NCBI GenBank assembly: GCA_036703175.1 | Contig: DATNPP010000195.1 | Coordinates: forward strand, 1-35,693 | Source of the DNA: Oscillatoriaceae cyanobacterium | GTDB taxonomy: Bacteria; Cyanobacteriota; Sericytochromatia; S15B-MN24; JAQBPE01 | Direction: 5' to 3' | Length of the DNA stretch: 35,693 nt | Shown here: piece after piece, positions 11,302 through 32,399 of the stretch | How the letters are laid out: each line of letters begins with the position of its first letter | Position numbering within the stretch: position 1 is the stretch's first letter | The notes under the pieces: generated by a model | What the model saw: only the letters and a program-made list of their open reading frames with translations | Database searches by the model: none | Told to the model about the DNA's origin: nothing | Made by a program: the position numbers and the translations under genes

Positions 11302-11311
11302 ATCTGAGGGT

Positions 11312-13636
11312 ATGACTCTCTCGTCGGGCGTCGCCCCCGCCGCTGTTCGCTCCCGTGGCTGGCTCTGGGCATTCCTCTTCGTCACCACGCTGCTGGTCGG
11401 GGTCTATGCCCAGGGCCTCGTCGGCGCCAAGAGTATCGACGGCGCGGGGCTGCTGCCTTACATGGACACGCTCTATGGACCGTTGCACAACTGTCCCTCG
11501 CGTCTCGCATTCAAAGACCCGACGCCCGCGGTATACAACCAGCCTTGGGACAGCGTCGCCTGGCGCCAGTTGCGCGCGGGGCACTTTCCGCTGTGGCAGC
11601 CCCATAACGGCTTCGGCGTTCCCTTGCTTGCGAGCGGCCAGGCTGCTCCGTTCAATCCGCTCAAATTGATCCTCGGCTTTGGCGCCACCGGCATCGCCGA
11701 GGCCTGGTTTCTGCTGCTACGACTCGAATTGGGCGCCTTGGGCATGTTGCTTTTGGCACGACGTTTCCGCTGGAAAGCGAGCACAGGCGTGCTCGTCGCG
11801 ACCGGCTTCATCTTCAGCGGCAACTTCATCTACCACGTCCAGTACTCGGATACGAGCACCTTCGTGGCCCTGCCCTGGCTGCTTTTGGCCGGTGAGGCCC
11901 TGCTCGACACCCCCAGCGCCCGCAACACCGTGCTGTTCGGGGCCGCCATCGGACTCGCCGGCTTGCTCGGGCACCCGGAACCCGCCGTGCTGGCGGCCGC
12001 TGGCACCGTACTCGCCGTGTTGCTCGGCGTGAGGCAAGCGCAGGCGCCTTGGCGCACCCTCCTCGCCTGTGTCGGAGCGTGCGGGCTCGGGATGGCTTTC
12101 GACGCCTTCACCCTGTTGCCCTTCTTCGAGTTGGTGCGCCACAGTGACAGCTACCTCTACGACGTCGCCCACCGCGTCGCCGTCACCGCGCAAGACACCT
12201 TCAAGGCCAAGTTCGTATTGCTCACCGTACACCTGTTCTCGCCCGACGCGCGGCCGGAGTTCATGAACTTCAACGACTATGCCGGCGCGGCGCCTTTGGC
12301 GCTCGCGCCGTGGGGATTCTCGGATCGGCCCGCGCGGCGCCTCGCGATCGCCCTCGGCAGTGTGGCGGCCCTCGTCCTGCTGACTTGCCCGCCTGGCCAG
12401 CATTTGAGCATCTTGCCCGTTTCGCCGAACTCGAACTATGTCTCGGCCCTCCTGGTGACGGCCCTCGTGCTGCTCGCCGGTGCCGGGTTGGAGCGTCTGC
12501 GCGCCACCCCGCAGCAAGCGCCGGCTTGCGTCGTCTTCGGGGGCGCCCTGACGCTTGTCGCCGTTGCGCTGCAGTGGCAGGCCCAACGCATGCACCTCGG
12601 AGATTTCCGGGTTTTCCTCGTGACGGCCCCCGCCTGCGCCGTCGCGATCGCCGCCCTGCGCTGGAAGCCGCGTGCGGCCACCGCCAGTCTCCTGCTCGTC
12701 TCCAGCCTCGGCCTCGCCTGGCAAGCCAACGCGGCGACGCCTGCCTTGCCGCGCTTCGATTACGCCAATACGCCCATCCTGAACTACCTCGAAGCCCACG
12801 CGGGTGACGCCCGCGTCACCGGAGGTCTGCGCTGCTTGCTGCCCGACACCAACCTCATGCACGGGCTGGACTCGCTCGACAGCTACGAAGTGTTTCACCC
12901 CAAGCGCTACGTCGCCTACATGCGGAAGCTGCTCGGGCGTACGCCACACGAAATGGGCTGGCTCGGCGTCGACGGCCCGTTCGACCCCACCTTGCTCGAT
13001 CTCGCCGGCGTGCGCTACCTCGTGCTCGCGAGCCCGGACCTGAACCTCGACGGTGCGATCGACCGCTTCCGCGCCGAAGTGCGAGAGTTGAGAGGCTATC
13101 CGCTCCTCATGCGGCAGGGGCGCGCGATGCTCTTCGAAAACCCGCATGCAATGCCGCGCGCCTTCACCGTCTCGGCCGCCGACTACGTGAGCGACTTCAA
13201 CGCCGCCGTCCTTCGCCTCGACGCAACGCCCGCGCGCTACAGAGCGCGCGCGCTCATCGAATCCCCCGGGGGCGCTCCGCCGAACTGGCGAGACGATGCT
13301 GCCTCCCCGCGCCCCGTGCGCATCCGCCGTGGCGACGACGGCTCGGTCGACGCCGCCGTCACCTTGCAATGCCCTGCCTGGTTGGTGCTCAGCGACCTCG
13401 CTTACCCCGGCTGGCGCGCTGAGGTCGATGGCGTCCCTGCGGCGATCCGTCCCGCCGACGTCGCCTTTCGCGCCGTCTATCTCGGCGCCGGCGCGCACCG
13501 CGTGCGGTTCTACTATCGACCGACCAGCTTCGCGCTCGGCGGACTGATCTCGTTGCTCGCGTGCGGACTGGCGGTAATCTTGCTGATCGCGAAGCCGCTG
13601 CTCGCCCTCGGGCGAGTCTCCGAACCATCCCTGTGA
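11312..13636 (+). CDS. YfhO-family membrane protein (putative GT-C glycosyltransferase), copy 2
   Basis: Starts 10 nt after copy 1 (GAGGG RBS). It is collinear with copy 1 (NQPWD.AWR, PLW.P.NGFG.PLL.SGQ.APFNPLKL, YPGWRAEVDGVPAAIRPADVAFRAVYLGAGAHRVRFYYRP). Confidence 0.65.
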   Translation: MTLSSGVAPAAVRSRGWLWAFLFVTTLLVGVYAQGLVGAKSIDGAGLLPYMDTLYGPLHNCPSRLAFKDPTPAVYNQPWDSVAWRQLRAGHFPLWQPHNGFGVPLLASGQAAPFNPLKLILGFGATGIAEAWFLLLRLELGALGMLLLARRFRWKASTGVLVATGFIFSGNFIYHVQYSDTSTFVALPWLLLAGEALLDTPSARNTVLFGAAIGLAGLLGHPEPAVLAAAGTVLAVLLGVRQAQAPWRTLLACVGACGLGMAFDAFTLLPFFELVRHSDSYLYDVAHRVAVTAQDTFKAKFVLLTVHLFSPDARPEFMNFNDYAGAAPLALAPWGFSDRPARRLAIALGSVAALVLLTCPPGQHLSILPVSPNSNYVSALLVTALVLLAGAGLERLRATPQQAPACVVFGGALTLVAVALQWQAQRMHLGDFRVFLVTAPACAVAIAALRWKPRAATASLLLVSSLGLAWQANAATPALPRFDYANTPILNYLEAHAGDARVTGGLRCLLPDTNLMHGLDSLDSYEVFHPKRYVAYMRKLLGRTPHEMGWLGVDGPFDPTLLDLAGVRYLVLASPDLNLDGAIDRFRAEVRELRGYPLLMRQGRAMLFENPHAMPRAFTVSAADYVSDFNAAVLRLDATPARYRARALIESPGGAPPNWRDDAASPRPVRIRRGDDGSVDAAVTLQCPAWLVLSDLAYPGWRAEVDGVPAAIRPADVAFRAVYLGAGAHRVRFYYRPTSFALGGLISLLACGLAVILLIAKPLLALGRVSEPSL

Positions 13637-13699
13637 GCCAGAAACCGCCCTTCGATTGCGATTGAGGCGGCAAACGAACGGGTAAACGAAACGAGCACG

Positions 13700-15322
13700 A
13701 TGGCCGACTCCGATACCTCCAACACGCCCAAACGCCACCTCGCCAGCGAGTTTGCCCTGCTGGTGATCTTGGGCGTCTGGCTCGTTCCGTTCGTGTTTTC
13801 CACCTACTTCCGCCCGGACGAGTTCACCCTGCTGAGCGGCGCGTTGCGCCAGCTCCATGGTCAGGTCGTCTACCGGGACTACTTCGAATTCACCGCGCCC
13901 CTGGTCACATGGCTACCTGCGGCGCTCTATTGGCTGGCAGGTCCCAGCTTGTTGGAGGCGCGCTTATTACAGGCCGCGTGCCTGTGCCTGGCCGGCTGGC
14001 AACTCTACGGCCTCGCGCGGCGCGTCGGCTGTGGCCCCTGGAGCGCGACGATACCCGGGCTCGCACTCGGCGTGGTGTTCTATCCCATCTGGCCCGGCTA
14101 CAGCCACCATTGGATCACGCTGGTCTTTCTATTCGGCGCCTTGCACGCCCTGTTTCGCGCGCTGGAGAGCCGCGGCGCGCGGTGGTGGGGGCTCGCCGGC
14201 GCCTGCGGCGCCCTCGATCTCTTGACGATGCAGTCGGATGGCGTGGCCCTGTTGCTCTTTCTGGCGGCCACGCCGCTCGCTGACTGGGCGATGGGCGCGC
14301 GTTCGCTGCGTTCCGCGCTCATGCAGACGCTTGCGGTGCTGACCGGCGCCCTGCCGCCGCTCCTTGCGTGCGCCGCGTACCTCGCGGCGCACCATGCGCT
14401 GCGCGCCGCCTACGTGAACGTCTTCGTCTGGCCGCTCACGCACTACAAAACGCCCGGCAACGTCAACGACATCAAGTGGGCCACCATGCTGCCGGGCGAG
14501 ATCGCGACCAACACCCCGCATTGGGTCAACCTGCCGACTTGGTACATCTCGCTGTTCCACGCCGTCACACTCTACGCCCTGCTGCCGGGCGTCGCGGCGA
14601 TCGCGGTTGCCTGGGGTCTCGGCCTCGTTTATCGGCGCCTCCGCACGCGTGTCCCGTGGCGCGCCGACGAGCGGCGTCTGGCACTCGTCGGCGCGCTGGC
14701 AACGGGGCTATCTCTCGTGATGCTCAAGGGCAGCGGCGACACCGTGCACACGGCCCAGTACGCGATCTTGCCGCTCCTGTTCGTGACGGCGATCGCCGCG
14801 CGCAGCCTCGACGTATGGACCGCGCCACAGTTCGCGCTCATCAAGCGCCTACCGCTATTCGCGTTGCTCACCTTCGTGGCCTCGGGCGCCTGGCTTTTCG
14901 TGTGCCAAGCACGACAAGCACCGAAGCTTTGGCTTTCGTTCGGCAATCCAGACGCCAAACTGGCCCACAGCCCGATCTTCGAGTACCTCATGGCCCATAC
15001 CGACGCCCACGACACCATCGCCGCGATGCCCTTCGGCGGCCTCTACAACTTCTACACGCGCCCGGCCGCCACGCGCTACACCTTGATGGGCCCGCTCACC
15101 GAGCACTACTACACGCTCGCCGAGGTACTCGACTTCGAGCAGGAAATCGAACGGAACCGGCCCAAATTCGTCGTGATCGACTTCCCCTACCGCACGATTC
15201 GCGACCCCGCCCTGTACCTGCCCAAACCCCTGCCGGGCTACCACTTCGTCGCTTGCTTGCCGGACGCCGACGCGGAGAATCGCTTCCCCGTCAGCATCTT
15301 CGAGCGAAACGACGCACGCTGA
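13700..15322 (+). CDS. Polytopic membrane protein, ArnT/PMT_2-like GT-C glycosyltransferase candidate
   Basis: 540 aa with about 10 or more hydrophobic segments. The first loop carries YFRPDEFTLL and YRDYFEFTAPL (GT-C-like acidic loop). The C-terminal domain is soluble. Confidence 0.5.
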   Translation: MADSDTSNTPKRHLASEFALLVILGVWLVPFVFSTYFRPDEFTLLSGALRQLHGQVVYRDYFEFTAPLVTWLPAALYWLAGPSLLEARLLQAACLCLAGWQLYGLARRVGCGPWSATIPGLALGVVFYPIWPGYSHHWITLVFLFGALHALFRALESRGARWWGLAGACGALDLLTMQSDGVALLLFLAATPLADWAMGARSLRSALMQTLAVLTGALPPLLACAAYLAAHHALRAAYVNVFVWPLTHYKTPGNVNDIKWATMLPGEIATNTPHWVNLPTWYISLFHAVTLYALLPGVAAIAVAWGLGLVYRRLRTRVPWRADERRLALVGALATGLSLVMLKGSGDTVHTAQYAILPLLFVTAIAARSLDVWTAPQFALIKRLPLFALLTFVASGAWLFVCQARQAPKLWLSFGNPDAKLAHSPIFEYLMAHTDAHDTIAAMPFGGLYNFYTRPAATRYTLMGPLTEHYYTLAEVLDFEQEIERNRPKFVVIDFPYRTIRDPALYLPKPLPGYHFVACLPDADAENRFPVSIFERNDAR

Positions 15323-18901: not shown

Positions 18902-20386
<1,485 letters not shown>

Positions 20387-20394
20387 GAGGCCCC

Positions 20395-21639
20395 GTGAAC
20401 CGCCGCGAATTCCTGAAAACCGCCGCCACGCTCGGCCTGTTCACCGTGATCCCGCTCGGCACGGGCGGCTGGGCCGTCGGCGGTCCGGGCCCTGCACGCA
20501 AGCGTTTGATCGTGCTCTTTCTGCGCGGCGCCGTCGACGGATTGAGCGTGGTCGTGCCGCACTTCGAGTCCGCCTACTACGACGCGCGCCCGACCATCGC
20601 GATTCCGCGCCCCGGCGGCACGGACGGCGTGCTGGATCTCGACGGCCGCTTCGGACTGCACCCGGCGCTCGAGGCCGTGATGCCGCTCTGGCAGCAAGGC
20701 AGCCTGGCCTTCGTGCACGCCTGCGGCTCGCCGGACGCGACGCGATCGCACTTCGACGCGCAGGACTACATGGAGTCCGGCACCCCGGGCGACAAGAACA
20801 CGCCCGGCGGCTGGCTGAACCGCCTGCTCGCCGTGCTGCCAGGCACCCACACGCCGACGCAGGGCGTGAGCGTGGGCGAGACGATTCCGCGTATCTTCTC
20901 CGGGCCGATTCCCGTGGCGAACCTGTCCCTCGGAAAGGATGCCGCGCGCAAGCTCCCGCTTGACCGCCCGGCCATCAAAGAAGCGTTCGCGCGCATGTAC
21001 CAGGGCACCGACCCGCTCAGCGTGGCCTACCAGAAGGGTAGCGCGCAGCGTGAGGAGTTGCTGAAGCAGCTAGACGCGCTGGACGAAGAGCAAAAAATCG
21101 CCGACCACGGCGCGCCATCGCCCCTTGGTTTCTCGCTGGAAGCCCAAAAACTCGCCGGCTTGATCCAGCGCGATCCGAGCATACAGCTCGCGTTCATGGA
21201 CCTCGGCGGCTGGGACACGCACGTGAACCAGGGCGCCGTTCATGGGCAGCTCGCGGGGCATCTGCGGCCATTGGCCGACGGGCTTTCGACGTTGGTGAAA
21301 GGCCTCGGAGACACGTATCAAGACACGACCATTTTGGTGATGTCCGAGTTCGGTCGAACGTTTCGCGAAAACGGCAACGCGGGTACCGACCACGGACACG
21401 GCAACGTCATGTGGGCGCTCGGAGGACGCGTGCAAGGGAAAAGAATCTACGGCGATTGGCCGGGGCTGACAGACAGCCGGCTATATCAAGGGCGAGATCT
21501 CGCGATCACGATGGACTTCCGGCAAGTGTTGACCGAGGTCTTGGCTGAACACCTCGCACTGAACGAGCAGCAACTTGCCACGGTATTGCCAGGCGCGCCG
21601 GGGCGATCGCCGCTTCTGCAGGGGCTTGCAAAAGCCTAA
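20395..21639 (+). CDS. DUF1501 domain-containing protein (Tat-exported, sulfatase/alkaline-phosphatase-like)
   Basis: GTG start after AGGAGG. Twin-arginine leader MNRREFLKTAATLG. MSEFGRT..ENGNAGTDHGHGN is characteristic of DUF1501. Confidence 0.8.
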   Translation: MNRREFLKTAATLGLFTVIPLGTGGWAVGGPGPARKRLIVLFLRGAVDGLSVVVPHFESAYYDARPTIAIPRPGGTDGVLDLDGRFGLHPALEAVMPLWQQGSLAFVHACGSPDATRSHFDAQDYMESGTPGDKNTPGGWLNRLLAVLPGTHTPTQGVSVGETIPRIFSGPIPVANLSLGKDAARKLPLDRPAIKEAFARMYQGTDPLSVAYQKGSAQREELLKQLDALDEEQKIADHGAPSPLGFSLEAQKLAGLIQRDPSIQLAFMDLGGWDTHVNQGAVHGQLAGHLRPLADGLSTLVKGLGDTYQDTTILVMSEFGRTFRENGNAGTDHGHGNVMWALGGRVQGKRIYGDWPGLTDSRLYQGRDLAITMDFRQVLTEVLAEHLALNEQQLATVLPGAPGRSPLLQGLAKA

Positions 21640-21668: not shown

Positions 21669-22796
21669 CTAAGTCTCCAGGGAACCCTTCGTTTGCATCG
21701 GGGTCATATGGCGTTCAAGTGTTTGAATGCGCGCCGCTAGCCGGCGGCCCAAGAACACGCCAGGTCGCTCGAACAAGTAGTAATACAACGTAGCCAGAAG
21801 CAAACTCGTGCACAGAGAGCAAGCGACTACAATCGGCGGGTGCGCTCCAAGATGGAAGGGACTCCAGTAAGCAAAAAAGTGTATCGTCAGAATATGGAGC
21901 AGATAGAAACTGTAAGAGATACGTCCCAGGAAACGTAGCGGCGCCAAGCCCAGGAAGCGCTTGAATCGCCCCGGTGCCAATGCCGCCACCACGAAGATGG
22001 CTGCCGCCAATGTCACGAGCGCTTCTTTAAGGAGCAAGCCGGCAACGTCGTAAGTCAGGTGATCGACGATCCGGAAGCTGAAGGTGAACATCAACAGGCC
22101 ACCGAGCAGGATCAGCAGGCGCCAGGCGAAATGCCGCGCGCTCCACCAATTCGCCAGACGATCGCGGTGGCGGGCCAGGGATATCCCGATCATGAACATT
22201 CCCATGTACATCAAACCGATCGGAAAAGTATCCGGCGCGCCGATGCGGATGAGCCAGCGGTCGAGAACCGCGCCCGACACGAAAGCCAGAATAACCGCGC
22301 CCGCCCAAGTCCACGATGAGGACTTCAGATAGCCACGCATCAGCCAAGGAAACACGAGCGAGATGCGCATCTCGTAGACGAGCGACCAGGCGACGGGCAG
22401 GACGGACACCCCCACGGGTCCAATCAGCTCCGCGTACGCCCCTAGTAACCCCAAGCTCGGCAAATGCCAGGGCTTCCCGGACGCGACCAAGCAAAGTCCA
22501 GGAAGTATCACCGCCAGAGCGAGCGCCGCCAAGTAGGCCGGGTAGATCCTCAGGACACGCTTGACCAGGAATCCAGGGGCGGAAACCGGGCCGTCGAGAA
22601 AGGGAAGGGCAAGCACGAACCCAGACAAAACGAAGAACAATCGCACGGCCTCAAGGCCACATGCGAACGGCGTATAATCCCAGAAGGACGAGTGGGGCAG
22701 TATCGTCAGGTGATAGCCCCACACAACGAGCGCCGCAAGGCCCCGCAGCGAGTCCAGCGCCTCGTAGCGTGGGGATGTGGATTGGTTTGAGATCAA
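21669..22796 (-). CDS. Acyltransferase family 3 (OafA/YrhL-like O-acyltransferase, membrane domain only)
   Basis: 375 aa, polytopic, with an apparent TTG start. N-terminal YEALDSLRGLAALVVWGYHL resembles the conserved start of acyltransferase-3 proteins. The gene is visibly AT-richer than its neighbours. Confidence 0.75.
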   Translation of the reverse strand: MISNQSTSPRYEALDSLRGLAALVVWGYHLTILPHSSFWDYTPFACGLEAVRLFFVLSGFVLALPFLDGPVSAPGFLVKRVLRIYPAYLAALALAVILPGLCLVASGKPWHLPSLGLLGAYAELIGPVGVSVLPVAWSLVYEMRISLVFPWLMRGYLKSSSWTWAGAVILAFVSGAVLDRWLIRIGAPDTFPIGLMYMGMFMIGISLARHRDRLANWWSARHFAWRLLILLGGLLMFTFSFRIVDHLTYDVAGLLLKEALVTLAAAIFVVAALAPGRFKRFLGLAPLRFLGRISYSFYLLHILTIHFFAYWSPFHLGAHPPIVVACSLCTSLLLATLYYYLFERPGVFLGRRLAARIQTLERHMTPMQTKGSLET

Positions 22797-23140: not shown

Positions 23141-23893
23141 TTAACTGCCCTGGCTGAAAGTCTGCGTCGTCGACGGGTTTACGTCGATCGCCGTCAACTT
23201 GGTCAGATCGCTGTTGTCGCCCCGAATCGCCTCGACGTTCCACGAATAGACGATGCCGTTCGTGATGCTCTCGTTCGAGCCCGTCGGGAAAATCGTCGTG
23301 AACTTGTCCAGCTTCACGGTGCTGTCCGCGCCGAACTTCAGGCTGGTATTGTCCGTCAACGCGCTCCAGGCCACCTTGCCGCTCGCGCCGTTGGTGACGG
23401 TCACGTAGTACCAGTTCGCGCCCGACACGGCGGACCAGCTGAAGGTCGGCGTGTCGCCCACGTTGATGGTCGCCTTGTCCGCGGGTTGCAGCCCGGTCGG
23501 CTTGCCGACCTGTTGCTTGAGAATCGCCACGGGCTCGGGGTTCGAGGTCGTGAGCTCCTTTTGATCGCCGGAGAGCGCCCGCACGGTGAAGCTGGCGGCC
23601 ATGCCGACGTCGAGCGAGCTGTCCGTGTAGCTCGTGTTCGAGGTGGTCGTGACCACCTTCGCGGTGCCCGTCGCCAGCTGGCGGATGACCTCGTAGGTCT
23701 TGGCGCTCAGGGCCGAGTTCCAGCTGAGCATCGCCTCGGAGGAGACCTTCTGCGTCGCCGGATCGACCTGGGTGACGCCCAGGGCGGTCAAGGGCAGCGG
23801 GCCGCCGCCCACGTAGGTGCCGTTCGGCAGCGTGCAGGCGGCGAGAAGCGTGACGGCGAGGGTTGCGGAGACACGGAGGGCGGGTTTGAACAT
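23141..23893 (-). CDS. Lipoprotein with two fibronectin-type-III-like repeats
   Basis: MFKPALRVSATLAVTLLAAC has lipobox LAAC. Two Fn3-like patterns are present: SWNSALSAKTYEVIRQ...TSYTDSSL...FTVRAL and FSWSAVSGANWYYVTV. GGAAGGAAG RBS lies 22 nt after the crp-like stop. Confidence 0.6.
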   Translation of the reverse strand: MFKPALRVSATLAVTLLAACTLPNGTYVGGGPLPLTALGVTQVDPATQKVSSEAMLSWNSALSAKTYEVIRQLATGTAKVVTTTSNTSYTDSSLDVGMAASFTVRALSGDQKELTTSNPEPVAILKQQVGKPTGLQPADKATINVGDTPTFSWSAVSGANWYYVTVTNGASGKVAWSALTDNTSLKFGADSTVKLDKFTTIFPTGSNESITNGIVYSWNVEAIRGDNSDLTKLTAIDVNPSTTQTFSQGS

Positions 23894-23915: not shown

Positions 23916-24602
23916 CTAGACCATCATCTCGCGGAGCTTGTCTTCGTTCTTGAGCGTGAGGCGGTTCTTGTCGAGCACGATGAGGCCGCGGTCCTGATAG
24001 TCCATCAGCACGCGCGTCAGCGTCTCGCGGCTGGTGCCGGCGAGGCTCGCCAGTTCCTGGCGGGTCATGTTGTGCGTGAAGGTGAGGCCCTCCGGGCTGC
24101 GCTCGCCGTTCTGGCCGAGCTCGAGCAGCAAGCGCGCCACGCGGCCGGGCGCCGAGAGGAAAGCCAGGCTCTCCATATTGCGATCGGCCGCGCGCAGACG
24201 CTGGGAGAGGGTGACGAGAAGCTTGAAGGCAATCTCGGGCGTGCTGCGCAGCAAGCGCCAGAACTCGTCGCGCTGGATCATGACGAGTTGCACGTCGTCG
24301 ACGCAGATCGCCGTCGCCGAGCGCGGCTCGCCGTCGAGCAGCGACATCTCCCCGAAGAAGTCGTTCTCGCCGAGCATGCCGAGGATGTGCTCGCGGCCGT
24401 CGTCGGCGTTCACGACGATCTTCACCTTGCCCGAGAGGATGATGTAGCCGCTCGTGCCGGGATCTTCCTCGTAGAAGATCACGTTGCCGCGCGAAATCGC
24501 GCGCGGCCGGCAAAGCTGGGCCAGCTGGGCCAGCTCGGCCTCGTCGAGATCCGCGAAGAGCGGCACGCTGCGCAGCGAGTTGTTGACGTCTTGCGCTCTC
24601 AT
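23916..24602 (-). CDS. Crp/Fnr-family transcriptional regulator
   Basis: Trimmed to the ATG at 24602 (GGGAGGG upstream). cNMP-binding signature FFGEMSLLDGEPRSATA and C-terminal HTH RQELASLAGTSRETLTRVL. Confidence 0.85.
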   Translation of the reverse strand: MRAQDVNNSLRSVPLFADLDEAELAQLAQLCRPRAISRGNVIFYEEDPGTSGYIILSGKVKIVVNADDGREHILGMLGENDFFGEMSLLDGEPRSATAICVDDVQLVMIQRDEFWRLLRSTPEIAFKLLVTLSQRLRAADRNMESLAFLSAPGRVARLLLELGQNGERSPEGLTFTHNMTRQELASLAGTSRETLTRVLMDYQDRGLIVLDKNRLTLKNEDKLREMMV

Positions 24603-24648
24603 CAAGCGGAAACCCTCCCATCGTGCGGCCGAGGCCGATTTCAGGCTC

Positions 24649-24657
24649 ATTTTACCA
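24649..24657 (-). promoter_or_regulatory. Extended -10 element TGGTAAAAT upstream of the crp-like gene
   Basis: The reverse complement of 24649-24657 reads TGGTAAAAT (TGnTAnnnT), 47 nt upstream of the ATG at 24602. Confidence 0.4.
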
Positions 24658-24698
24658 CGGTTGGCTTCGGCGCACGCGGGCGATCCTCACGGCACGAG

Positions 24699-24714
24699 TG
24701 TCAGACGGATCACA
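24699..24714. promoter_or_regulatory. CRP-like palindrome TGTCA-N6-TCACA
   Basis: 9 of 10 positions match TGTGA-N6-TCACA. It is centred roughly 60-65 bp upstream of the predicted start site of the crp-like gene. Confidence 0.3.
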
Positions 24715-24729
24715 CCAAGCGTGAGTTCC

Positions 24730-27555
24730 CTAATACAGCAATCCCACCTGAGGTTTCCAGGTCGCGTTGTAGGTCAATCCGATCGTCGGCGTGATCGCGA
24801 GGCCGTAGGCCTGCGTCTGGGGCACCTTGCCGTTGAAGACGTAGGCGTCGGCGCCGACGCTGAGCGACAGCCCGCCCCAGAGCGGGAACTCGAACGCCGG
24901 CTGGCACTCGCCCAGAAAGCCGATGTCCGCCGGCGTGTCCTGCGTGGTCGGAAGGTACTGCTTGAGATCGAGATCCAGCGTGAAGTCCGCCGGGCCCAGC
25001 GACTGCTTGAACTTCGTTTCGAGCTCGCCGCCGGCCTGCACGCCCGGGCGATCCACGTCGCGCTTGGCGATCGCCCCCAGCCGCAATTCCTTGAACCACC
25101 CGCCCGGCTGCAACACCACGCCGCCGATGCCGTCGTATTCCTGCTCGAGCGGGTTGGCCTTGCCCGTCGAGGCATCGATCGTCGGCGTGAACTGCGTGAC
25201 GTAGTTGCCCTTCACGAACGGCACCAGATCCATCGTGTCCCCCGGCATGTCGAGCTTGAAGACCTTGAGCCGCAGCTCGGTGCCGAGCGCCAGATTGTTG
25301 TCCGGCTCCTGCACGCTGGGACCGCTCGCGCTGTCCAGCTCCTCGCGCTGATAGGCCGAAACGATCGTGTTCTCCCAGTCGATCGACGCCGCCTCGTAGG
25401 CGATCGACACCTTGCCCTTGCCGCCGATCAGCGTGCTGTTGGCGTTGTTGAGGTTCGAGTCCCGCACCTGCCCGAACTCGTCGCGGCTCGTGGCGCGGAA
25501 CGCCTGGAACGTGCCTTCGAGGGGCTTCACCGTCAGCACCCAGCGCGGGGCGATCGCGCTGCCGTCGTCTTGCAGCATGCTCACGAGCGCCTTGCAGTAG
25601 TCCGCCGTGAAGCCGCCGTAGCGCTGTTTCAATCCGACGAGGCGCGCCAGCACCGCGTCGTGCAGGGTCGTCGCTCCGGCCGCCGTCGGCGCCAGGCGGC
25701 CGCCTTGCAAGGCGAGCGGACGCGCATCGGCATCCTGGAAGGCTCTGCGATAGCCCTCGCTGTGCGCGATCCGCGCCGTCGTCACCACGCGGTAGACCTC
25801 GTCGTCCTCCAGCTTGCGCCCACCGACCTTGGCCTTGGCCGCATCCACGCCGGCGGCCACCAGGTATTCGGCGTCGAGCAGCATGCGAATCTGTTTGCCG
25901 GTCAGCTGGGCGCTGACGAGATGCTCGTTGGACAACCAGGCCTCGGCGGTCGATTCCGGCACCGCGCCTTCGAGAATCGAGCCGCCGTCCAGCTTGGGCA
26001 CGATGGCGATCTCGGCGCCCGCCTCGCGCCGCAGGCTGCTGGCCGCGAGGCGCGACCACTGCGGCTGGTTGTACTCGTCGAACTCGGTGTCCTTGTAGAC
26101 GCCGGCCTTGGGGGCGATCGCGAGCAGATCCCGAAAGTCCGGCAACAGGGCCTCGCGATGCTTCGCCAGAAAGGCCAGGCGCGCCTCGCGCTGGCTCCAG
26201 GAGCGCGCCGCGTCGGCGACCGGCACCTCCCGATCGGTCGCGCGCTGCACGTCGTTGTCGACCGCCTGCAAGCCTCGGGCGCCGAAATCCAGCGTGAGCC
26301 GTCCGACTTGCTCGGTCCGCACGCCGGCAACCAGCCAGGGTTCCCCGTCACGCGTGCTCTGCGGATCGGCAGGCTCGAAGCGCTCGTGGTAGCGCCACTC
26401 CGTGTGTTCGGGATGGCACCCCACGATCACCGCGATTCCAGTCGTCTGCCGGCGCAGCTCCGCGAGGTCGCTCTCGCCGAGATTGGTCAGGATCACCACG
26501 GCATCGACGCCCTCCTGGCGTACCGCATCCAGCGCGGGCCGAAGGGCCTCGGCGGGGCTCTTCCAATGCCACCCGGCACGCGCGTTGAGCGCCCCGGTAT
26601 CGAGCAGACGATCCGTGTCCGCGAGGCCGATGATGCCGATGCGACGGCCGTCGCGCTCACCGATGACGTAAGGCTTCAGCTGGACGCCCGCGGGCGGCGT
26701 CAAATTGGCCGCCACCAGAGGGGCGCGCTGCGACAGGCGAACCAGCGCGTCGTGGGGCATTTGCAGCTCGTCGACCCAGGGCACCAGAGCATCGAGATGC
26801 AGCCCCGCGACGCGATCGATCTCGTCGTTGCTCGCGTCCGGTGCGAGCAGCCCGCCGAGGTCCACGCGCAGCGCATGCGATTGCGCGGCCTGCGCCGAGG
26901 CCAGCACCCGGCTTGCCGCGCCGCCCAGCTGGTTGCCGAAGAGGTCGATCGTGCCGGTGTGGAGGTTGCGCGTCAACGTGGCGCTGTCGCGGCTGGCCCA
27001 GTGCCACGCGTACGGCTGTTTGAGCGCATCGCCGCGTGGCGTGCTGCCGTCGTCGCTGAGAATGAACACATGCTGGCCATGGGGCCCGACGGCCGTAAAG
27101 AGGCGCCCCGTCGTGAACCGCACGTCGGGCATTCGGCCGTCCTGGCGGATGCGATCGACCAGCCATCGGACGAGCCAGGGGCGCTGCGCGTCGGGCTCCT
27201 GAAACGCGCTGATGTAGTCCGAGCGCAACTCGGGTACCAACTGACCGCCGGGCTGCACGCGCAGCCCGCCTTGCGCGAAGAGCCCGCTCGCCGTCGCCGG
27301 CTCGAGCGGGTGGCCCGCCGACCACATGACCCAGTCGCCATGGCGCAGTACCGCCTGGTCGACGTCAATGCCGCTCGCGGCCACATCGGTGTCGCCGTAA
27401 AGATACTGGCTCTCGTTGAGCGTGACGTAAGCCGCGTCAAGACCGCCGAGCATCGCGGTATAAACGATCGGCACCTGGGCGTGCGGCGCGGGGGTGGCAT
27501 CGGCTGGAACGGCGAGCGTGGCGAGCAGCAGGGTCGTGAAAAAACGGCGGTACAA
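24730..27555 (-). CDS. Large secreted protein: 5'-nucleotidase/metallophosphatase-like region fused to a C-terminal beta-barrel-like domain
   Basis: Preferred start is TTG at 27555 (GAGG 8 nt upstream), giving MYRRFFTTLLLATLAVPADA as signal peptide. The ORF-track start at 27600 is also TTG but has no SD. UshA-like blocks: IGIIGLADTD, GVDAVVILTNLGESD, GIAVIVGCHPEH, LVSAQLTGKQIRMLLD, EVYRVVTTARIAHSEGY. The last ~270 aa have alternating-hydrophobic strands and end in ...GLTYNATWKPQVGLLY. Confidence 0.55.
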   Translation of the reverse strand: MYRRFFTTLLLATLAVPADATPAPHAQVPIVYTAMLGGLDAAYVTLNESQYLYGDTDVAASGIDVDQAVLRHGDWVMWSAGHPLEPATASGLFAQGGLRVQPGGQLVPELRSDYISAFQEPDAQRPWLVRWLVDRIRQDGRMPDVRFTTGRLFTAVGPHGQHVFILSDDGSTPRGDALKQPYAWHWASRDSATLTRNLHTGTIDLFGNQLGGAASRVLASAQAAQSHALRVDLGGLLAPDASNDEIDRVAGLHLDALVPWVDELQMPHDALVRLSQRAPLVAANLTPPAGVQLKPYVIGERDGRRIGIIGLADTDRLLDTGALNARAGWHWKSPAEALRPALDAVRQEGVDAVVILTNLGESDLAELRRQTTGIAVIVGCHPEHTEWRYHERFEPADPQSTRDGEPWLVAGVRTEQVGRLTLDFGARGLQAVDNDVQRATDREVPVADAARSWSQREARLAFLAKHREALLPDFRDLLAIAPKAGVYKDTEFDEYNQPQWSRLAASSLRREAGAEIAIVPKLDGGSILEGAVPESTAEAWLSNEHLVSAQLTGKQIRMLLDAEYLVAAGVDAAKAKVGGRKLEDDEVYRVVTTARIAHSEGYRRAFQDADARPLALQGGRLAPTAAGATTLHDAVLARLVGLKQRYGGFTADYCKALVSMLQDDGSAIAPRWVLTVKPLEGTFQAFRATSRDEFGQVRDSNLNNANSTLIGGKGKVSIAYEAASIDWENTIVSAYQREELDSASGPSVQEPDNNLALGTELRLKVFKLDMPGDTMDLVPFVKGNYVTQFTPTIDASTGKANPLEQEYDGIGGVVLQPGGWFKELRLGAIAKRDVDRPGVQAGGELETKFKQSLGPADFTLDLDLKQYLPTTQDTPADIGFLGECQPAFEFPLWGGLSLSVGADAYVFNGKVPQTQAYGLAITPTIGLTYNATWKPQVGLLY

Positions 27556-27589
27556 GGCAGGACCTCGATTGGAACCTACGCCTTGTACC
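27550..27589 (-). promoter_or_regulatory. Hairpin spanning the TTG start (27553-27555) of the large gene, terminator-like
   Basis: Perfect 10-bp inverted repeat GGTACAAGGC / GCCTTGTACC with a 20-nt loop that contains the GAGG. The TTG start lies in the 3' arm. On the minus strand the hairpin is followed by GCCG and TTTTTT. Confidence 0.4.
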
Positions 27590-27606
27590 CTAGCAGGCAA
27601 GTAAGC

Positions 27607-28503
27607 TCACGGCTTGGGGGTGAAGGCTTCCAGGCGCGCGAGCTCGCGCCAGAGCGGCAGATCCGCCTCGGGCACGTGCGGCGGCAGCATCAATCGCACG
27701 CGAATCAGCAGCGCGCCGCGATCGCCCCCCTTGAGCCGCGGCGCGCCCTTGCCCTTGAGCCGAAAGGTCTTGCCGCCCTGCGTGCCCGCCGGAATTTTGA
27801 GCTTGATTTCGCCGTCGAGCGTCGGCACCGACAACTCGGCGCCCAGCAAGGCATCGAAGACGCTCACGGGCAGATCGAGAACCAGGTCGTCGCCCTCGCG
27901 CGTGAAGCGCGCATGCGGCTTGACCGTCACCTTGACGAAGAGATCGCCCGGCGGCGAGCCCGGGTCGCCCTCGCGCGCCACGCGCACGCGCGTGCCGCTC
28001 ACCACGCCGGCCGGAATCGGCACGCGCAGCTTCTTCTGGCCGTGCGGACGCGACACGGCGAGCGTCAAATTCGTGCCCGCGACGGCCTCTTCGAGCGTGA
28101 TCTCGGCCTCGACCTCGACGTCCTCGCCGCGCGCCGTGCGCGGTTGGCCGCCGTTGCGGAAGAGCGTCTGCAGAATGTCGTCGAGCCCGCCGAAGCCGGC
28201 CGCGCCGCCCATGCCGCCGTAGGGATCGTGCCCGGCCTGGCGGTGCATGCCGCTTCGGGCGAACGGGTTCGTGCGCAGCATGTCGTACTGCTTGCGCTTG
28301 TCCGGGTCGGAGAGCACCTCGTAGGCCTCCGAGACCTCCTTGAAGCGCGCCTCGGCGGACGCATCGCCCGGATTGGCGTCCGGATGATACTGACGCGCGA
28401 GCTTGCGAAACACGCGCTTGATCTCGGCCTCGTCGGCGTTCTTGGCGACGCCCAGCACCTGGTAGTAGTCTTTCACGCTCGGAGCCCTCGTGCCGAATAG
28501 CAT
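27607..28503 (-). CDS. cbpA: J-domain co-chaperone lacking the zinc-finger region (CbpA-like, class II DnaJ)
   Basis: KDYYQVLGV...YHPDANPGD is the J-domain HPD motif. A G/F-rich linker and DnaJ C-terminal domains follow, with no CxxCxGxG repeats. The start is ATG 28503 or the GTG at 28476 (GAGGG upstream). Confidence 0.8.
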   Translation of the reverse strand: MLFGTRAPSVKDYYQVLGVAKNADEAEIKRVFRKLARQYHPDANPGDASAEARFKEVSEAYEVLSDPDKRKQYDMLRTNPFARSGMHRQAGHDPYGGMGGAAGFGGLDDILQTLFRNGGQPRTARGEDVEVEAEITLEEAVAGTNLTLAVSRPHGQKKLRVPIPAGVVSGTRVRVAREGDPGSPPGDLFVKVTVKPHARFTREGDDLVLDLPVSVFDALLGAELSVPTLDGEIKLKIPAGTQGGKTFRLKGKGAPRLKGGDRGALLIRVRLMLPPHVPEADLPLWRELARLEAFTPKP

Positions 28504-28546
28504 AAGTCGCGCGCGGGTTGCTGCCAAGTGACATCGGGACGAATCG

Positions 28547-28579
28547 CAAAACCGCCCGGCCATACGGCCGGGCGGTTTG
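28547..28579 (-). terminator. Hairpin terminator after the small ORF
   Basis: ACCGCCCGGCC-ATAC-GGCCGGGCGGT 11-bp stem. A short T-run (TTTTG) follows on the minus strand. Confidence 0.55.
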
Positions 28580-28612
28580 CAGGTAGCATGCAGGAAAGGA
28601 GAAACCGGGAAA

Positions 28613-28903
28613 TCAGCGCGGAATGATGTGCTTGAAGGTATCTTCGAGCACCGAAACGAGCTTCTGTTTGAGGTCCACCGTACCGCTCTGATGGAACAAA
28701 TTGGCCTCGCCATAGGGATTGCGCTTGACCATGTCGGACTCGAAATTGAACAGGCCGTTGCCCTGGTCCGCCACCGACAGGGACAGGAGATCGCGGTCCA
28801 TCTTGCCGGGGGGCATCAGCTGCTGCTTGACGAGCTTGCTCGCGAGCTGCGTGTTCGAGAGCGTGGGCTGCAGATTCGCGGGAACGTTCACGGGGTTGGG
28901 CAT
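28613..28903 (-). CDS. Small hypothetical protein (96 aa), no recognisable family
   Basis: GGAGG sits 5 nt before the ATG at 28903. It begins MPNPVNVPANLQPTLSNTQLASKLVKQQL. It has no signal peptide. It has its own promoter-like hexamers and terminator. Confidence 0.45.
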   Translation of the reverse strand: MPNPVNVPANLQPTLSNTQLASKLVKQQLMPPGKMDRDLLSLSVADQGNGLFNFESDMVKRNPYGEANLFHQSGTVDLKQKLVSVLEDTFKHIIPR

Positions 28904-28986: not shown

Positions 28987-29019
28987 AAAAAGAAGCCGCC
29001 CGGCGAACCGGGCGGCTTC
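28987..29019 (-). terminator. Rho-independent terminator of ffs
   Basis: Perfect 12-bp stem GAAGCCGCCCGG / CCGGGCGGCTTC with loop TTCG (minus-strand sense), followed by TTTTT on the minus strand. Confidence 0.85.
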
Positions 29020-29025
29020 AAACTC

Positions 29026-29132
29026 AAGGTGACCGGGCTTCCCCACAACACCCGCGGCATTCCGCTTATCGTTGCTCCCTTCCGGGCCTAGCGAAGTTCA
29101 CGGCGCCACGCCGCGTGGGACCCAGCCACCAG
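29026..29132 (-). ncRNA. ffs: Signal recognition particle RNA (small bacterial 4.5S type)
   Basis: The minus strand reads ...CUAGGCCCGGAAGGGAGCAACGAUAAGCGG..., matching the conserved domain IV core (E. coli CAGGUCCGGAAGGAAGCAGCCAAGGCAG) with a GGAA tetraloop. The 5' GGUGGCUGGG pairs with the 3' CCCGGUCACC as a closing helix. It is flanked by a TGGTATAAT promoter and a strong terminator. The ends are approximate. Confidence 0.85.
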
Positions 29133-29138
29133 ATCCCG

Positions 29139-29147
29139 ATTATACCA
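29139..29147 (-). promoter_or_regulatory. Extended -10 promoter TGGTATAAT of ffs
   Basis: The reverse complement of 29139-29147 is TGGTATAAT, about 7 nt upstream of the start of the SRP RNA helix. Confidence 0.6.
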
Positions 29148-29177
29148 TGGCGTCAACGCGCGGGAGCAGGCAGGGGT

Positions 29178-29210
29178 GGCGAATTGTTAAGCAGTCTGTT
29201 ACAATTCGCC
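29178..29210 (+). promoter_or_regulatory. Perfect 10-bp inverted repeat GGCGAATTGT-N13-ACAATTCGCC upstream of htrA
   Basis: It lies in the ffs/htrA divergent region, 30 nt before the htrA ATG. The right arm overlaps a candidate -10 TACAAT (29200-29205), with TGGCGA at 17-nt spacing. Confidence 0.4.
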
Positions 29211-29239
29211 CGAACAGGCAACTGCGGATGGGAGGAGAC

Positions 29240-30325
29240 ATGCGTCGGATTCTCGCTTATACGCTCGCAATGACGCTGGGACTGGTCGGCGGGGGGCTGC
29301 TCGAGCATGCCTACATGCCGGTCGAGGCGCAAACGCCCGTTTCACACCCGGTCGTGGTGAAGCCCGCGGCCTACGGGCAACCGGCGATCGTCGGCAGCAA
29401 CACGATCGCCGACCTGGTGCAGCGGGTGTCGCCCGCGGTCGTGAACATCGACACGATCGAGCGCGGCATGGTGGTGGATCCCTTCGCCCAGGTCTTCGGC
29501 AACGGTACGCCCGAAGAATACGAGGAAAAGGGCGTCGGCTCGGGGTTCTTCGTCGACGGCAACGGGCTCATCATCACGAACAATCACGTGATCCGCGACG
29601 CCCAGAACATCACCGTGACGACCTCGGACGGCAAGACGTACAAGGGCAGCGTCGTGGGCGCGGATCCGGCGACGGACGTCGCGCTGGTGCAGATTCATGC
29701 GCACGGCACGCATCCGCTGGCGCTCTCGAACGGCAACGGCCTGCGCGTGGGCGATTGGGTGCTCGCCATCGGCAGCCCGCTCGGCCTCTCGCAGACCGTC
29801 TCCGTGGGCATCATCAGCGCGATGAACCGCGAGGTGTCGATCAACGAGCGCGTGAACTTCATTCAGACCGACGCCGCGATCAACCCCGGCAACTCGGGCG
29901 GCCCGCTGATCGACATGCAGGGCCAGGTGGTCGGCATGAACACGGCGATCGCCGCCCGCGGCCAGAACATCGGCTTCGCGATCCCCGCCTGGACGATCAA
30001 CAACGTGGTGTCGCAGCTGCGCACCCGCGGCCACGTCGAGCATCCCTGGCTCGGCATCTCGATTCGCGACCTGCCGGACAAGAACGGCGTGCTGGTGATG
30101 GGCATCGTCTCGAGCGGTCCGGCGGCGAGCGGCGGCTTGCGGCCGCGCGATCGCATCGTCGGCATCGACGGCCGCCCCGTGCACGACGCCCGCGATCTGC
30201 TCAGCTACCTGACGGACCGCAGCATCGGCGACACGGTCAAGGTCGACGTGCTGCGCGACAGTCAGCATCTGACGCTGTCGATCCACCTGGCCCCCATGCC
30301 GCAGGGCGCGATGCAGCCCTCGTAG
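29240..30325 (+). CDS. htrA: HtrA/DegP-family serine endoprotease with one PDZ domain, N-terminal membrane anchor
   Basis: GGAGGAG precedes the ATG at 29240. Catalytic-triad contexts: ITNNHVI, DVALVQI, GNSGGPL. The C-terminal PDZ-like region is GVLVMGIVSSGPAASGGLRPRDRIVGIDG. The upstream 56 codons of ORF 29072.. overlap ffs and were discarded. Confidence 0.9.
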   Translation: MRRILAYTLAMTLGLVGGGLLEHAYMPVEAQTPVSHPVVVKPAAYGQPAIVGSNTIADLVQRVSPAVVNIDTIERGMVVDPFAQVFGNGTPEEYEEKGVGSGFFVDGNGLIITNNHVIRDAQNITVTTSDGKTYKGSVVGADPATDVALVQIHAHGTHPLALSNGNGLRVGDWVLAIGSPLGLSQTVSVGIISAMNREVSINERVNFIQTDAAINPGNSGGPLIDMQGQVVGMNTAIAARGQNIGFAIPAWTINNVVSQLRTRGHVEHPWLGISIRDLPDKNGVLVMGIVSSGPAASGGLRPRDRIVGIDGRPVHDARDLLSYLTDRSIGDTVKVDVLRDSQHLTLSIHLAPMPQGAMQPS

Positions 30326-30482
30326 GGCCTCGCCGGCTCGGTATGCGGCGTTCGGCTGCCGGGTACAAGCCTTTTGGCCATTCTGAACGGTACCCGGTTC
30401 CGCGCATCCGGTAGAATGGGCACCAGCGGCCATGCGGCCGTCAGGAATGGCACGGGCCAAGCCCCGACAGGAGGACGTTCCC

Positions 30483-31493
30483 TTGCGCATCATCGTGACC
30501 GGCGGCGCCGGCTTCATCGGCTCGAACTTCGTCCGTATGCTGCTCAACGAGCACCCCGAGCACGAGGTGACGGTGCTCGACGCGCTCACCTACGCCGGCA
30601 ATTTGGCGAGCCTGGAAGATCTGCAATCGATCCCGCGCTTCCGCTTCGTGCACGGCGACATCTGCGACGCGCCGCTCGTCGATTCGCTGGCCGCCAAGGC
30701 GGACGCGATAGTCCACTTCGCCGCCGAGAGCCACGTCGACCGCTCGATCAGCGATCCGGGCATCTTCGTGCAAACGAACGTGCAGGGCACGCTCACGCTG
30801 CTCGAAGCCGCCAAGAAGCATAAGCTCACGCGCTTCGTCCACGTCAGCACCGACGAGGTATACGGCTCTCTCGGCCCCACGGGACTCTTCACCGAAGAGA
30901 CTCCTATAGCGCCCAACAGCCCCTACTCGGCCTCGAAGGCCTCGAGCGACCTGATGGCGCGCGCCTACCACGAGACTTTCGGCTTGCCCGTGATGATCAC
31001 GCGCTGCAGCAACAACTACGGGCCTTACCAGTTCCCCGAGAAGCTGATTCCGTTCTTCATCGCGAGCCTGCTCGACGGCGCTTCGGTGCCGGTCTACGGC
31101 GACGGGCTGAACGTGCGCGACTGGCTGCACGTCGAAGACCACTGCCAGGCGATTTCGCTCGTGCTGCATCGGGGCGTGCCGGGCGAGGTCTACAACATCG
31201 GCGGCAACAACGAGCGCACCAACCTCGCGATCACCCAGCTGCTCATCGAGAAGCTGGGCCGCGACGAGCGCGCGATCAAGTACGTGCAGGATCGCCCGGG
31301 GCATGACCGGCGCTACGCGATCGACGCGAGCAAGATCACGCGCGAACTGGGCTGGAAGCCCAAGTACACCTTCGAGACGGGCATTGCCCAGACGATCGAA
31401 TGGTACCTCGCCAACCGCGACTGGTGGGAGCCGCTGCGCAGCCGTGGGCTGGACAGCAAGCGCGCCGCGGCGAACCAGGTCAGCGCGAAGTAG
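30483..31493 (+). CDS. rfbB: dTDP-glucose 4,6-dehydratase
   Basis: TTG start at 30483, 8 nt after AGGAGGA, gives (M)[15 protein letters not shown]. Motifs include YSASKASSD and the DRPGHDRRYAID signature. Confidence 0.9.
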   Translation: MRIIVTGGAGFIGSNFVRMLLNEHPEHEVTVLDALTYAGNLASLEDLQSIPRFRFVHGDICDAPLVDSLAAKADAIVHFAAESHVDRSISDPGIFVQTNVQGTLTLLEAAKKHKLTRFVHVSTDEVYGSLGPTGLFTEETPIAPNSPYSASKASSDLMARAYHETFGLPVMITRCSNNYGPYQFPEKLIPFFIASLLDGASVPVYGDGLNVRDWLHVEDHCQAISLVLHRGVPGEVYNIGGNNERTNLAITQLLIEKLGRDERAIKYVQDRPGHDRRYAIDASKITRELGWKPKYTFETGIAQTIEWYLANRDWWEPLRSRGLDSKRAAANQVSAK

Positions 31494-31505
31494 AAGGAGA
31501 CCGAC

Positions 31506-32399
31506 ATGGCGTACAAGGGCATCATCCTCGCGGGCGGCTCGGGCACGCGCCTGCATCCGCTGACGATTCCGCTCTCCAAGCAGCTGATCCCCGTCTACGA
31601 CAAACCCATGATCTACTATCCGCTCTCGGTGCTTCTGCTGGCGGGCATCCGCGAGATCCTCATGATCACCACGCCGCACGACCAGGAACTGTTCCAGCGA
31701 TTGCTGGGCGACGGCAGCCAGTGGGGCATCCGGCTGGAGTACGCCGTGCAGCCCTCGCCGGATGGCCTCGCGCAGGCTTTCTTGATCGGCGAACAGTTCA
31801 TCGGCAACGATCCGGTCTGTCTGATTCTGGGCGACAACCTCTACTACGGCGAGGGCCTCTACGACATTCTGCGCCGGGCCGCCGAGCGCGAGACCGGGGC
31901 CACCGTTTTCGGCTACTACGTCAAGGATCCCGAGCGTTACGGCGTGGTGGCTTTCGACAAGGACGGGCACGCCACTTCGATCGAGGAGAAGCCCAAGCAT
32001 CCGAAGAGCAACTACGCGGTGACGGGCCTTTACTTCTACGACAACGACGTGGTGGCGATCGCCAAGAGCATCGAGCCGAGCCCGCGCGGCGAGCTCGAGA
32101 TCACGGACGTCAACAAGGTCTACATGCTGCGCGGCGATCTGAACGTCGAGCTTCTGGGCCGCGGCATGGCCTGGCTGGACACGGGCACGCACGACTCGCT
32201 ACTCGCCGCGAGCAACTTCGTCCAGGTGGTCGAAGAGCGCCAGGGCCTCAAGATCTGCTGTCCCGAGGAGATCGCCTACCGTTCGGGCTACATCGACGCC
32301 GCGCAGCTAGAGAAGCTGGCGCGGCCGCTCGCGAAGAACCAGTACGGCCAGTATCTGCTCAATCTGCTCGAGCGCGAGCACACCGAGGTAAGGGCATGA
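31506..32399 (+). CDS. rfbA: Glucose-1-phosphate thymidylyltransferase
   Basis: AAGGAG RBS. Motifs: [43 protein letters not shown]. Confidence 0.95.

Follow-up and report, generated by a model that had tools for sequence, protein, structure and literature searches.

Secreted enzymes of the UshA/5'-nucleotidase family (PF00149 plus PF02872; structures 1ush, 2z1a, 3ivd, NadN 3ztv, CD73 and SoxB 2wdc) are built of two domains linked by a helix. We analysed a gene on the minus strand of contig DATNPP010000195.1 (24730-27555), from an Oscillatoriaceae cyanobacterium, that encodes a 941-residue protein, hereafter the target. The window is the whole stretch of 35,693 nucleotides (nt), and all coordinates are counted in it. 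The target resembles the UshA-type enzymes in its two-domain fold, domain order, linking helix and secreted location. However, a single one of the seven metal-ligand positions is retained, the catalytic histidine and the substrate-binding motifs are lost, and the target carries an extra subdomain of ~165 residues after motif I and a membrane barrel of 270 residues at the C-terminus. The best explanation of the whole, to which we assign a probability of about 0.6, is an outer-membrane protein with a periplasmic, dead UshA-type clamshell beneath a charge-lined, 12-stranded, DUF3078-like barrel.

Three other groups of outer-membrane proteins invite comparison. DUF3078 (PF11276) comprises uncharacterised outer-membrane proteins that are mostly known from Bacteroidota. 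They are similar in size to the barrels of the target family, some of which match the DUF3078 model, and they are mentioned in papers on outer-membrane-vesicle proteomes. To our knowledge, however, they occur as stand-alone barrels and have no large N-terminal module attached. Type Va autotransporters, especially EstA (3kvn) with its globular enzyme passenger, share with the target a signal peptide, a soluble module, a helix and a 12-stranded C-terminal barrel. In contrast to them, the target has no match to PF03797, a linker helix of only 11 residues, and neither a β-helix nor an autochaperone; in its relatives, a long-range cysteine pair (30 of 117) and one OmpA-like insert argue against export. 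Finally, FapF, PgaA, BcsC, LptD and BamA have a periplasmic module under a C-terminal barrel, which is the topology proposed here, and FapF (12 strands, plugged) was among the better structural matches to the target barrel. Their modules are TPR, POTRA, coiled-coil or β-jellyroll units, whereas that of the target would be a dead enzyme fold.

Both folds are known, and our results are consistent with a fusion and a family-wide pseudoenzyme state that are undescribed in Pfam and NCBIfam models, source names and the searched literature. No Pfam or NCBIfam model attains its threshold on the target, and the relatives are called 'hypothetical protein' or carry one generic label. This agrees with an earlier reading of the DNA from its letters alone (the sequence-only reading), which could not place the architecture in a described family. 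The literature search returned nothing relevant on nucleotidase-barrel or nucleotidase-autotransporter fusions, inactive outer-membrane metallophosphoesterases, DUF3078 function or Sericytochromatia outer membranes.

The target belongs to a large family

We searched for relatives with an exhaustive HMMER profile search, which gave 1242 representatives at E≤1e-3 and 146 clusters (50% identity) at E≤1e-30. The latter are mostly 900 to 1050 residues long and align end to end with the same layout; the tail of the E≤1e-3 set beyond the strongest matches may include true 5'-nucleotidases. An exhaustive search was required, since a word-indexed search missed the family: the single sequence found one relative, and a 47-member profile returned true 5'-nucleotidases in place of the family. 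Genome and metagenome scans with a two-sequence alignment gave no match; a later alignment matched three loci. The full-length relatives are 37 to 41% identical to the target, and 117 full-length members were used for the residue counts below. With at least 146 clusters at 50% identity, the family amounts to a large group of predicted outer-membrane proteins that lack annotation, in bacteria of soil and groundwater.

A two-domain 5'-nucleotidase fold

We compared the target with the Protein Data Bank (PDB) by sequence and by structure. The phmmer search matched 2z1a (E 9e-7), and a two-sequence profile matched 3ivd (E 4.6e-8). In hhalign, a 14-member family profile aligned with seven true 5'-nucleotidases with a probability of 99.4% (E 2.1e-21), pairing residues 207-644 with 47-527 and covering both domains. 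A full-length AlphaFold2 model built from 47 family members had a mean predicted local distance difference test score (pLDDT) of 90.7 and a predicted template modelling score (pTM) of 0.86. The best 50 Foldseek matches of this model in the PDB were all members of the 5'-nucleotidase family, with 2z1a at the top (E 8e-18), and included the Thermus 5'-nucleotidase, E. coli c4898, 3ivd, NadN, UshA, CD73 and SoxB. About 500 columns were aligned, with template modelling (TM) scores on the target of about 0.55 to 0.63.

Domain models were less sensitive to this resemblance. PF02872 scored 16.3 bits on the whole target and 19.5 bits on a fragment, below its cutoff of 23.6, and was matched by 20 of 47 relatives; relatives that exceed the cutoff include P0125 (26.0 bits) and P0150 (45.9 bits). 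PF00149 matched no sub-fragment of the target at E≤10 and none of the 47 relatives at E≤0.01. NCBIfam gave weak SoxB and UshA-like matches, SoxB being the best (E 4e-8). The subdomain at residues 41-206 had no Pfam match and no meaningful PDB sequence match, and lies outside the hhalign coverage against 5'-nucleotidases.

Profile alignments and models together confirm that residues from about 26 to 650 adopt the two-domain UshA/5'-nucleotidase fold. The sequence-only reading had already proposed a nucleotidase-derived module, and the peptides on which it relied were found where it placed them: VPIVYTAMLGGLD at residues 28-40, IGIIGLADTD at 306-315, GVDAVVILTNLGESD at 349-363, GIAVIVGCHPEH at 373-384 (26404-26439) and, in the C-terminal domain, LVSAQLTGKQIRMLLD at 546-561 and EVYRVVTTARIAHSEGY at 586-602, with the protein ending in ...QVGLLY.

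Loss of the active site

The ligand positions were mapped from UshA through the profile alignments. The metal ligands D41 and H43 of UshA correspond to M35 and G37 in the target, D84 to G235 (motif II, VDLGG), and H217 to N358 (motif IV, LTN). In motif III (PWVDE), the ligand N116 is replaced by V261 and the catalytic H117 by D262, while Glu263 is kept. In motif V (GCHPEH, 26404-26439), the ligand at the Gln/His position (Q254) has become E383, and H252 is preserved as H381, the only one of the seven metal-ligand positions to survive.

The loss extends across the family. None of the 117 full-length relatives has GNHE or GHxH and two have a DxH-like string, whereas GNHE and DxH were both present in all 11 of the true 5'-nucleotidases examined. 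Motif II reads GN in 40 members, GG in 32, GD in 15 and GE in 11. In the C-terminal domain, the nucleotide-binding columns (the GGIR arginine, the PFxN phenylalanine and asparagine, and F..GGDGY) are replaced or deleted. The residues conserved in the module are mostly glycines, prolines and hydrophobic positions of the core, together with Glu263 and Asn284, and form no polar site. These comparisons strongly support the view that the module is a catalytically inactive pseudoenzyme scaffold, in the target and family-wide, which bears out the earlier suspicion of degenerate metal motifs and possible inactivity. Automatic labels such as '5'-nucleotidase' or 'cyclic-nucleotide phosphodiesterase' are probably wrong for the whole family.

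The position of motif I needed separate consideration, as the hhalign alignment begins only past it. A conserved V-x-V-Y-T-G-x-x-x-G, similar in shape to VLHTNDxHG, follows directly after the signal peptide in the family. When residues 44-205 were deleted, global hhalign paired the N-terminus of the target with motif I, although the alignment was forced and the match weak. A firmer indication is given by cysteines at the columns of G38 ('VYxxPGC') and E245, which starts the helix after motif II. Both were present in 30 of 117 members, neither in 85 and one alone in 2, and the two columns are ~200 residues apart. That the two cysteines occur together almost without exception speaks for a disulfide between two former metal-holding loops. 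It also lends indirect support to the placement of the lost DxH at VPIVYTAMLGG, where the sequence-only reading had found the motif apparently absent, and implies a family-specific subdomain of ~165 residues (41-206) inserted after strand 1. MAFFT had set the reference DxH opposite residues about 185-206; this placement was dropped in favour of residues 28-38 on the basis of the conserved YTGxxxG, the hhalign start point and the covariation of the cysteines.

The C-terminal barrel

A separate AlphaFold2 model of residues 625-941 had a pLDDT of 86.6, and both this and the full-length model contained 12 long antiparallel strands within residues 671-934. Foldseek returned 61 PDB matches to the barrel model at E≤1e-3, and all 50 matches listed were outer-membrane barrels, including OmpG, the NalP, EstA, Hbp and AaaA translocators, FadL, FapF, PorB, a COG4313 channel and OMPLA. 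The TM-scores were modest (0.57 for OMPLA, the best; 0.40 to 0.46 for FapF; 0.21 to 0.37 for autotransporter barrels) and thus indicate no particular solved barrel family. Most barrel strands show alternating hydropathy, and the composition is shifted toward Gly, Thr, Asn and aromatic residues. The C-terminus of the target is aromatic and resembles a β-signal (...GLLY); an aromatic residue lies within the last three positions in 81 of 117 relatives. Models and sequence together confirm residues 671-941 as a C-terminal β-barrel of the outer-membrane type and not a soluble β-sandwich. The boundary proposed from the letters alone (about 25548, residue 670) adjoins the first modelled strand at residue 671. 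With a signal peptide, an even-numbered antiparallel barrel and a C-terminal aromatic residue, the target has the predicted features of an outer-membrane β-barrel protein, that is, a substrate of the β-barrel assembly machinery (BAM).

The barrel of the target itself matched no Pfam model, DUF3078 included, and the barrel profile had no meaningful match among PDB sequences. PF03797 was matched neither by the target (E≤10) nor by the barrel fragments of 27 relatives (E≤1). Of these fragments, 11 matched DUF3078 at E≤1 (best E 3e-6), as did 3 of 47 full-length members at E≤0.01, and these matches point to no more than a distant relationship of the barrel to DUF3078.

A set of charged residues is near-invariant in the 117 full-length members: R698, R701, D753, D754, E760, R762, E788, R825, D833, D873, D903 and K910. 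The motif YDTEFTPT in loop L3 is also conserved. The barrel is probably the functional core, since its lumen and outer loops hold the charged residues that are best conserved in the family. In the target itself, however, positions 701, 753, 754 and 788 (about 25192-25455, minus strand) are Asn, Asn, Asn and Gln, where nearly every relative has Arg, Asp, Asp and Glu. The conserved charge network of its barrel seems to have undergone a concerted neutralisation. R701 (loop L1) and D754 (strand 4) were lost together in the target's clade. Their joint loss suggests a salt bridge that draws L1 into the lumen; this sign is weak, as it may reflect a single evolutionary event.

Membrane side of the module

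The C-terminus of outer-membrane barrels generally lies in the periplasm. With an even number of strands (12), strand 1 of the target would accordingly begin at the periplasmic rim. The connections in the model fit this orientation, with lengths of 17, 2, 16, 5, 10 and 8 residues outside and 3, 12, 5, 2 and 2 residues inside. The last helix of the module is joined to strand 1 by ~20 residues, 11 of them helical (651-661) plus 9 more, and nearby strands are up to 19 residues long, so that the chain would have to be stretched out almost completely to pass through the lumen. The pLDDT of the linker was 91 to 95 in the full model and fell to 73 to 75 in the barrel model built without the N-terminal module, which suggests that the linker packs on the module and not within the barrel. 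Topology, linker, cysteine pair and OmpA-like insert taken together make a periplasmic module probable and a surface-exposed one the lesser possibility. The sequence-only reading had left open whether the module was anchored to the barrel or exported through it; the evidence favours an anchored, periplasmic module, short of proof.

The strongest competing explanation is display in the manner of an autotransporter, in which the 12-stranded barrel would export the module through its own pore to become a non-catalytic surface adhesin or binding protein. The order of the parts is the same, from signal peptide and passenger to helix and 12-stranded C-terminal barrel, and the NalP, EstA, Hbp and AaaA translocators were among the Foldseek matches listed. 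Moreover, the conserved long outer loops L1, L3 and L5 could dock a surface module, and the high pTM implies a fixed arrangement of module and barrel. However, TM-scores to autotransporter barrels were low, PF03797 was absent at E≤1 from the target and the 27 barrel fragments, and the helix before the barrel has 11 residues where 20 to 30 are typical, leaving ~20 residues to span strands of up to 19. One face of this helix is hydrophobic, and the confidence with which it is modelled drops when the N-terminal module is left out. Type Va export is known to tolerate closely spaced cysteine pairs only and to be blocked by long-range disulfides, and a probable disulfide spanning ~200 residues in 30 members conflicts with it. 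The OmpA-like insert of the relative P0087 was also counted in favour of a periplasmic module. P0087 (L010 685-4374) has 1229 residues and aligns end to end with the family; its residues from about 450 to 715 form an insertion of ~260 residues between the two nucleotidase-like domains, with an OmpA-family domain at 29.2 bits (cutoff 27.2). We consider export through the barrel unlikely, though a serious contender.

Several points weigh against a dead periplasmic module. Its membrane side is inferred from the models, not observed. The OmpA-like insert of P0087 seems, from its sequence, to be without the usual peptidoglycan-binding Asp and Arg, and the cysteine pair is missing in the target and its nearest relatives. 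The best-conserved polar residues of the family are in the outer half of the barrel and in the predicted extracellular loops L1, L3 and L5, so that a surface-exposed module docking there would fit too. No conserved neighbourhood was seen in the window and the contigs of seven relatives (for P0092, the called-gene table only), and neither a ligand nor a phenotype supports a specific function. Finally, Asp232, Glu263, Asn358, His381 and Glu383 are still present near the old site of the target, where they might allow weak binding of a single metal.

These five residues would also suit a module that is still an enzyme, with a new mono-metal or metal-independent active site for a non-nucleotide phosphoester or a sulfur substrate, for which SoxB, the best NCBIfam match and a product of divergence within this superfamily, offers a precedent. 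Position 263 is Glu or Asp in 113 of 117 members. However, SoxB retains its di-metal motifs and the target's family does not; His381 and Glu383 are lost even in a 39%-identical relative, which reads SHQP. No family-wide polar constellation exists beyond Glu263 and Asn284, and in 30 members the loops that once formed the metal site probably carry a disulfide. A surviving enzyme is therefore improbable. The last alternative is an artefact: a spurious high-GC open reading frame (ORF), a chimeric assembly, or a pseudogene in decay that fuses nucleotidase and porin genes. It could draw on a G+C content of 66 to 71% and on long antisense ORFs such as 24484..28500 (plus strand, 1338 residues). Relatives and model effectively refute it: over 100 full-length family members, found in independent metagenomes and metagenome-assembled genomes (MAGs), have the same layout and no frame breaks, and the model is confident across the domain junctions. 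The start context and the signal peptide are also intact.

Possible mechanism

Under the preferred reading of a dead periplasmic module beneath the barrel, Sec would carry the protein across the inner membrane, and the nucleotidase-like module would fold on the periplasmic side. For roughly one relative in four, a long-range disulfide in place of the metal site would apparently lock the module. BAM would insert the barrel into the outer membrane, and the module would remain periplasmic, held at the barrel rim by the short linker. It would hydrolyse no phosphoesters and may serve as a non-catalytic binding, gating or scaffold unit derived from a hinge-bending 'clamshell', while the barrel, as the probable functional core, might act as a small gated channel or as a structural anchor. 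If the module binds a ligand or gates the barrel, the family would clearly exemplify the recruitment of a pseudoenzyme to an envelope function and would provide a handle on DUF3078 barrels.

A more specific proposal is that the dead UshA clamshell opens and closes on a ligand and thereby gates or feeds a DUF3078-type channel, making the family a new class of outer-membrane machine across diderm phyla. We regard this as speculative and rather unlikely. If true, the hinge motion of an enzyme would have been put to new use as a receptor or valve in outer-membrane transport, and a first function would be assigned to DUF3078 barrels.

Gene features

The ORF listing gives 24730..27600 on the minus strand; the 941-codon version starts at TTG (24730-27555). 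Its features are collected in Table 1.

Table 1. Features of the target gene and protein, with window coordinates
Feature	Residues	Coordinates	Strand	Basis or remarks
Shine-Dalgarno-like GAGG		27563..27566	-	direct sequence reading; 7 nt upstream of TTG 27555-27553
TTG start and predicted Sec signal peptide MYRRFFTTLLLATLAVPADA	1-20	27496..27555	-	A-x-A cleavage site before TP; lipobox Cys absent
First β-strand and remnant of metallophosphatase motif I	26-40	27436..27480	-	IVYTAMLGG where VLHTNDxHG is expected; modelled strand E26-33
Family-specific α/β subdomain of ~165 residues, inserted after motif I	41-206	26938..27435	-	confident in model
Rest of degenerate metallophosphatase (5'-nucleotidase N-terminal) domain	207-445	26221..26937	-	phmmer, profile, hhalign, Foldseek
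Long inter-domain helix, as in UshA-type enzymes	446-468	26152..26220	-	modelled H449-465; inside hhalign-aligned region
5'-Nucleotidase C-terminal-domain fold	469-650	25606..26151	-	without GGIR, PFxN and F..GGDGY; PF02872 sub-threshold
Short linker	651-670	25546..25605	-	11-residue amphipathic helix DYCKALVSMLQ, then DDGSAIAPR, into barrel strand 1
12-stranded outer-membrane β-barrel, DUF3078-like	671-941	24733..25545	-	models, Foldseek; ends WKPQVGLLY
Stop codon		24730..24732	-	ORF listing

The TTG codon sits 51 nt past the stop of a dnaJ-like gene. The N-terminal hydrophobic stretch and PAxA are kept among relatives, and a signal-like h-region was found in 104 of 117 members. A sequence scan of the target beyond the signal peptide detected no segment hydrophobic enough for a membrane helix. 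Anchoring by an N-terminal lipid was considered and dropped, as lipobox-like matches occurred in 3 of 117 members only and were read as chance. We take 24730-27555 (minus strand) as confirmed to be a real gene of 941 codons. The region around it has a G+C content of 66 to 71%. The 1338-codon ORF antisense to it and to the dnaJ-like gene, with an Arg/Ala-rich translation of low complexity, was read as the usual high-GC antisense artefact and not as a gene.

Hosts and gene neighbourhood

Public sequencing reads assign the sequence to a soil metagenome. The closest genome matches (37 to 40% identity) were to three proteins, two of them paralogues from a single Candidatus Sericytochromatia MAG and the third from a groundwater 'Cyanobacteria' MAG. 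Judged by this one gene, the window probably comes from a lineage related to theirs. The paralogues, 37% and 40% identical to the target, are full-length and lie on separate contigs of Candidatus Sericytochromatia bacterium LC083 (L007 5908-8829 and L008 5926-8805). Named hosts of family members are MAGs of Sericytochromatia, Cyanobacteria and Myxococcales, together with one Bacteroidota-like contig. Next to P0087 lies the gene of a TonB-dependent receptor that contains a CarboxypepD_reg domain, a neighbour that hints at a Bacteroidota-like host. Members that were looked up have either no name or the label 'hypothetical protein' (for example, MCB9535143.1 of a Myxococcales MAG), and one JGI member is labelled '2',3'-cyclic-nucleotide 2'-phosphodiesterase (5'-nucleotidase family)'. 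In P0150, residues 56-289 near the N-terminus make up an entire PdxA, which is a cytoplasmic enzyme; the gene caller most likely merged two neighbouring genes.

No export-system partner genes were found near the target or in the relatives' loci examined. An ABC-F type ATPase adjoins the family gene in two loci (L001 5152-6522, minus strand; L007 4237-5877, plus strand), and a DUF4332 protein is encoded near it in two (L001 269-874; L004 3547-4305); these recurrences probably reflect lineage synteny rather than a functional link. The window is also rich in envelope-glycan genes (8701-15322, plus strand; 21669-22796, minus strand; 30432-32399, plus strand) for two large YfhO-like membrane proteins, a PMT_2 glycosyltransferase, an Acyl_transf_3 acyltransferase and rmlB/rmlA. 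A functional link to them was rejected, as none adjoins the target's relatives.

On the same strand as the target, the dnaJ-like gene (27607-28713) encodes a CbpA-like protein with DnaJ and DnaJ_C matches and no zinc-finger match. As its J domain does not begin until residue 82 of the ORF, translation probably starts near 28500, and coordinates 28527-28499 hold a sigma-70-like site. A Crp/Fnr-type regulator (cNMP_binding plus HTH_Crp_2; 23916-24650, minus strand) begins 79 nt downstream of the target stop. The promoter and terminator scan detected no terminator between the dnaJ-like gene, the target and the crp-like gene. In the 250-residue ORF at 23141-23893 (minus strand), a lipoprotein-type signal (TLLAAC) is combined with a sub-threshold match to the GH85 C-terminal domain; its probable product is a small lipoprotein of the surface or the periplasm. 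Two adjacent genes at 18902-21639 (plus strand) form a DUF1800/DUF1501 pair. On the other side, a strong terminator-like hairpin (28992-29019, minus strand; 12 pairs, 10 of them G-C, then a T-run) separates the minus-strand genes from an htrA-like gene (29072-30325, plus strand).

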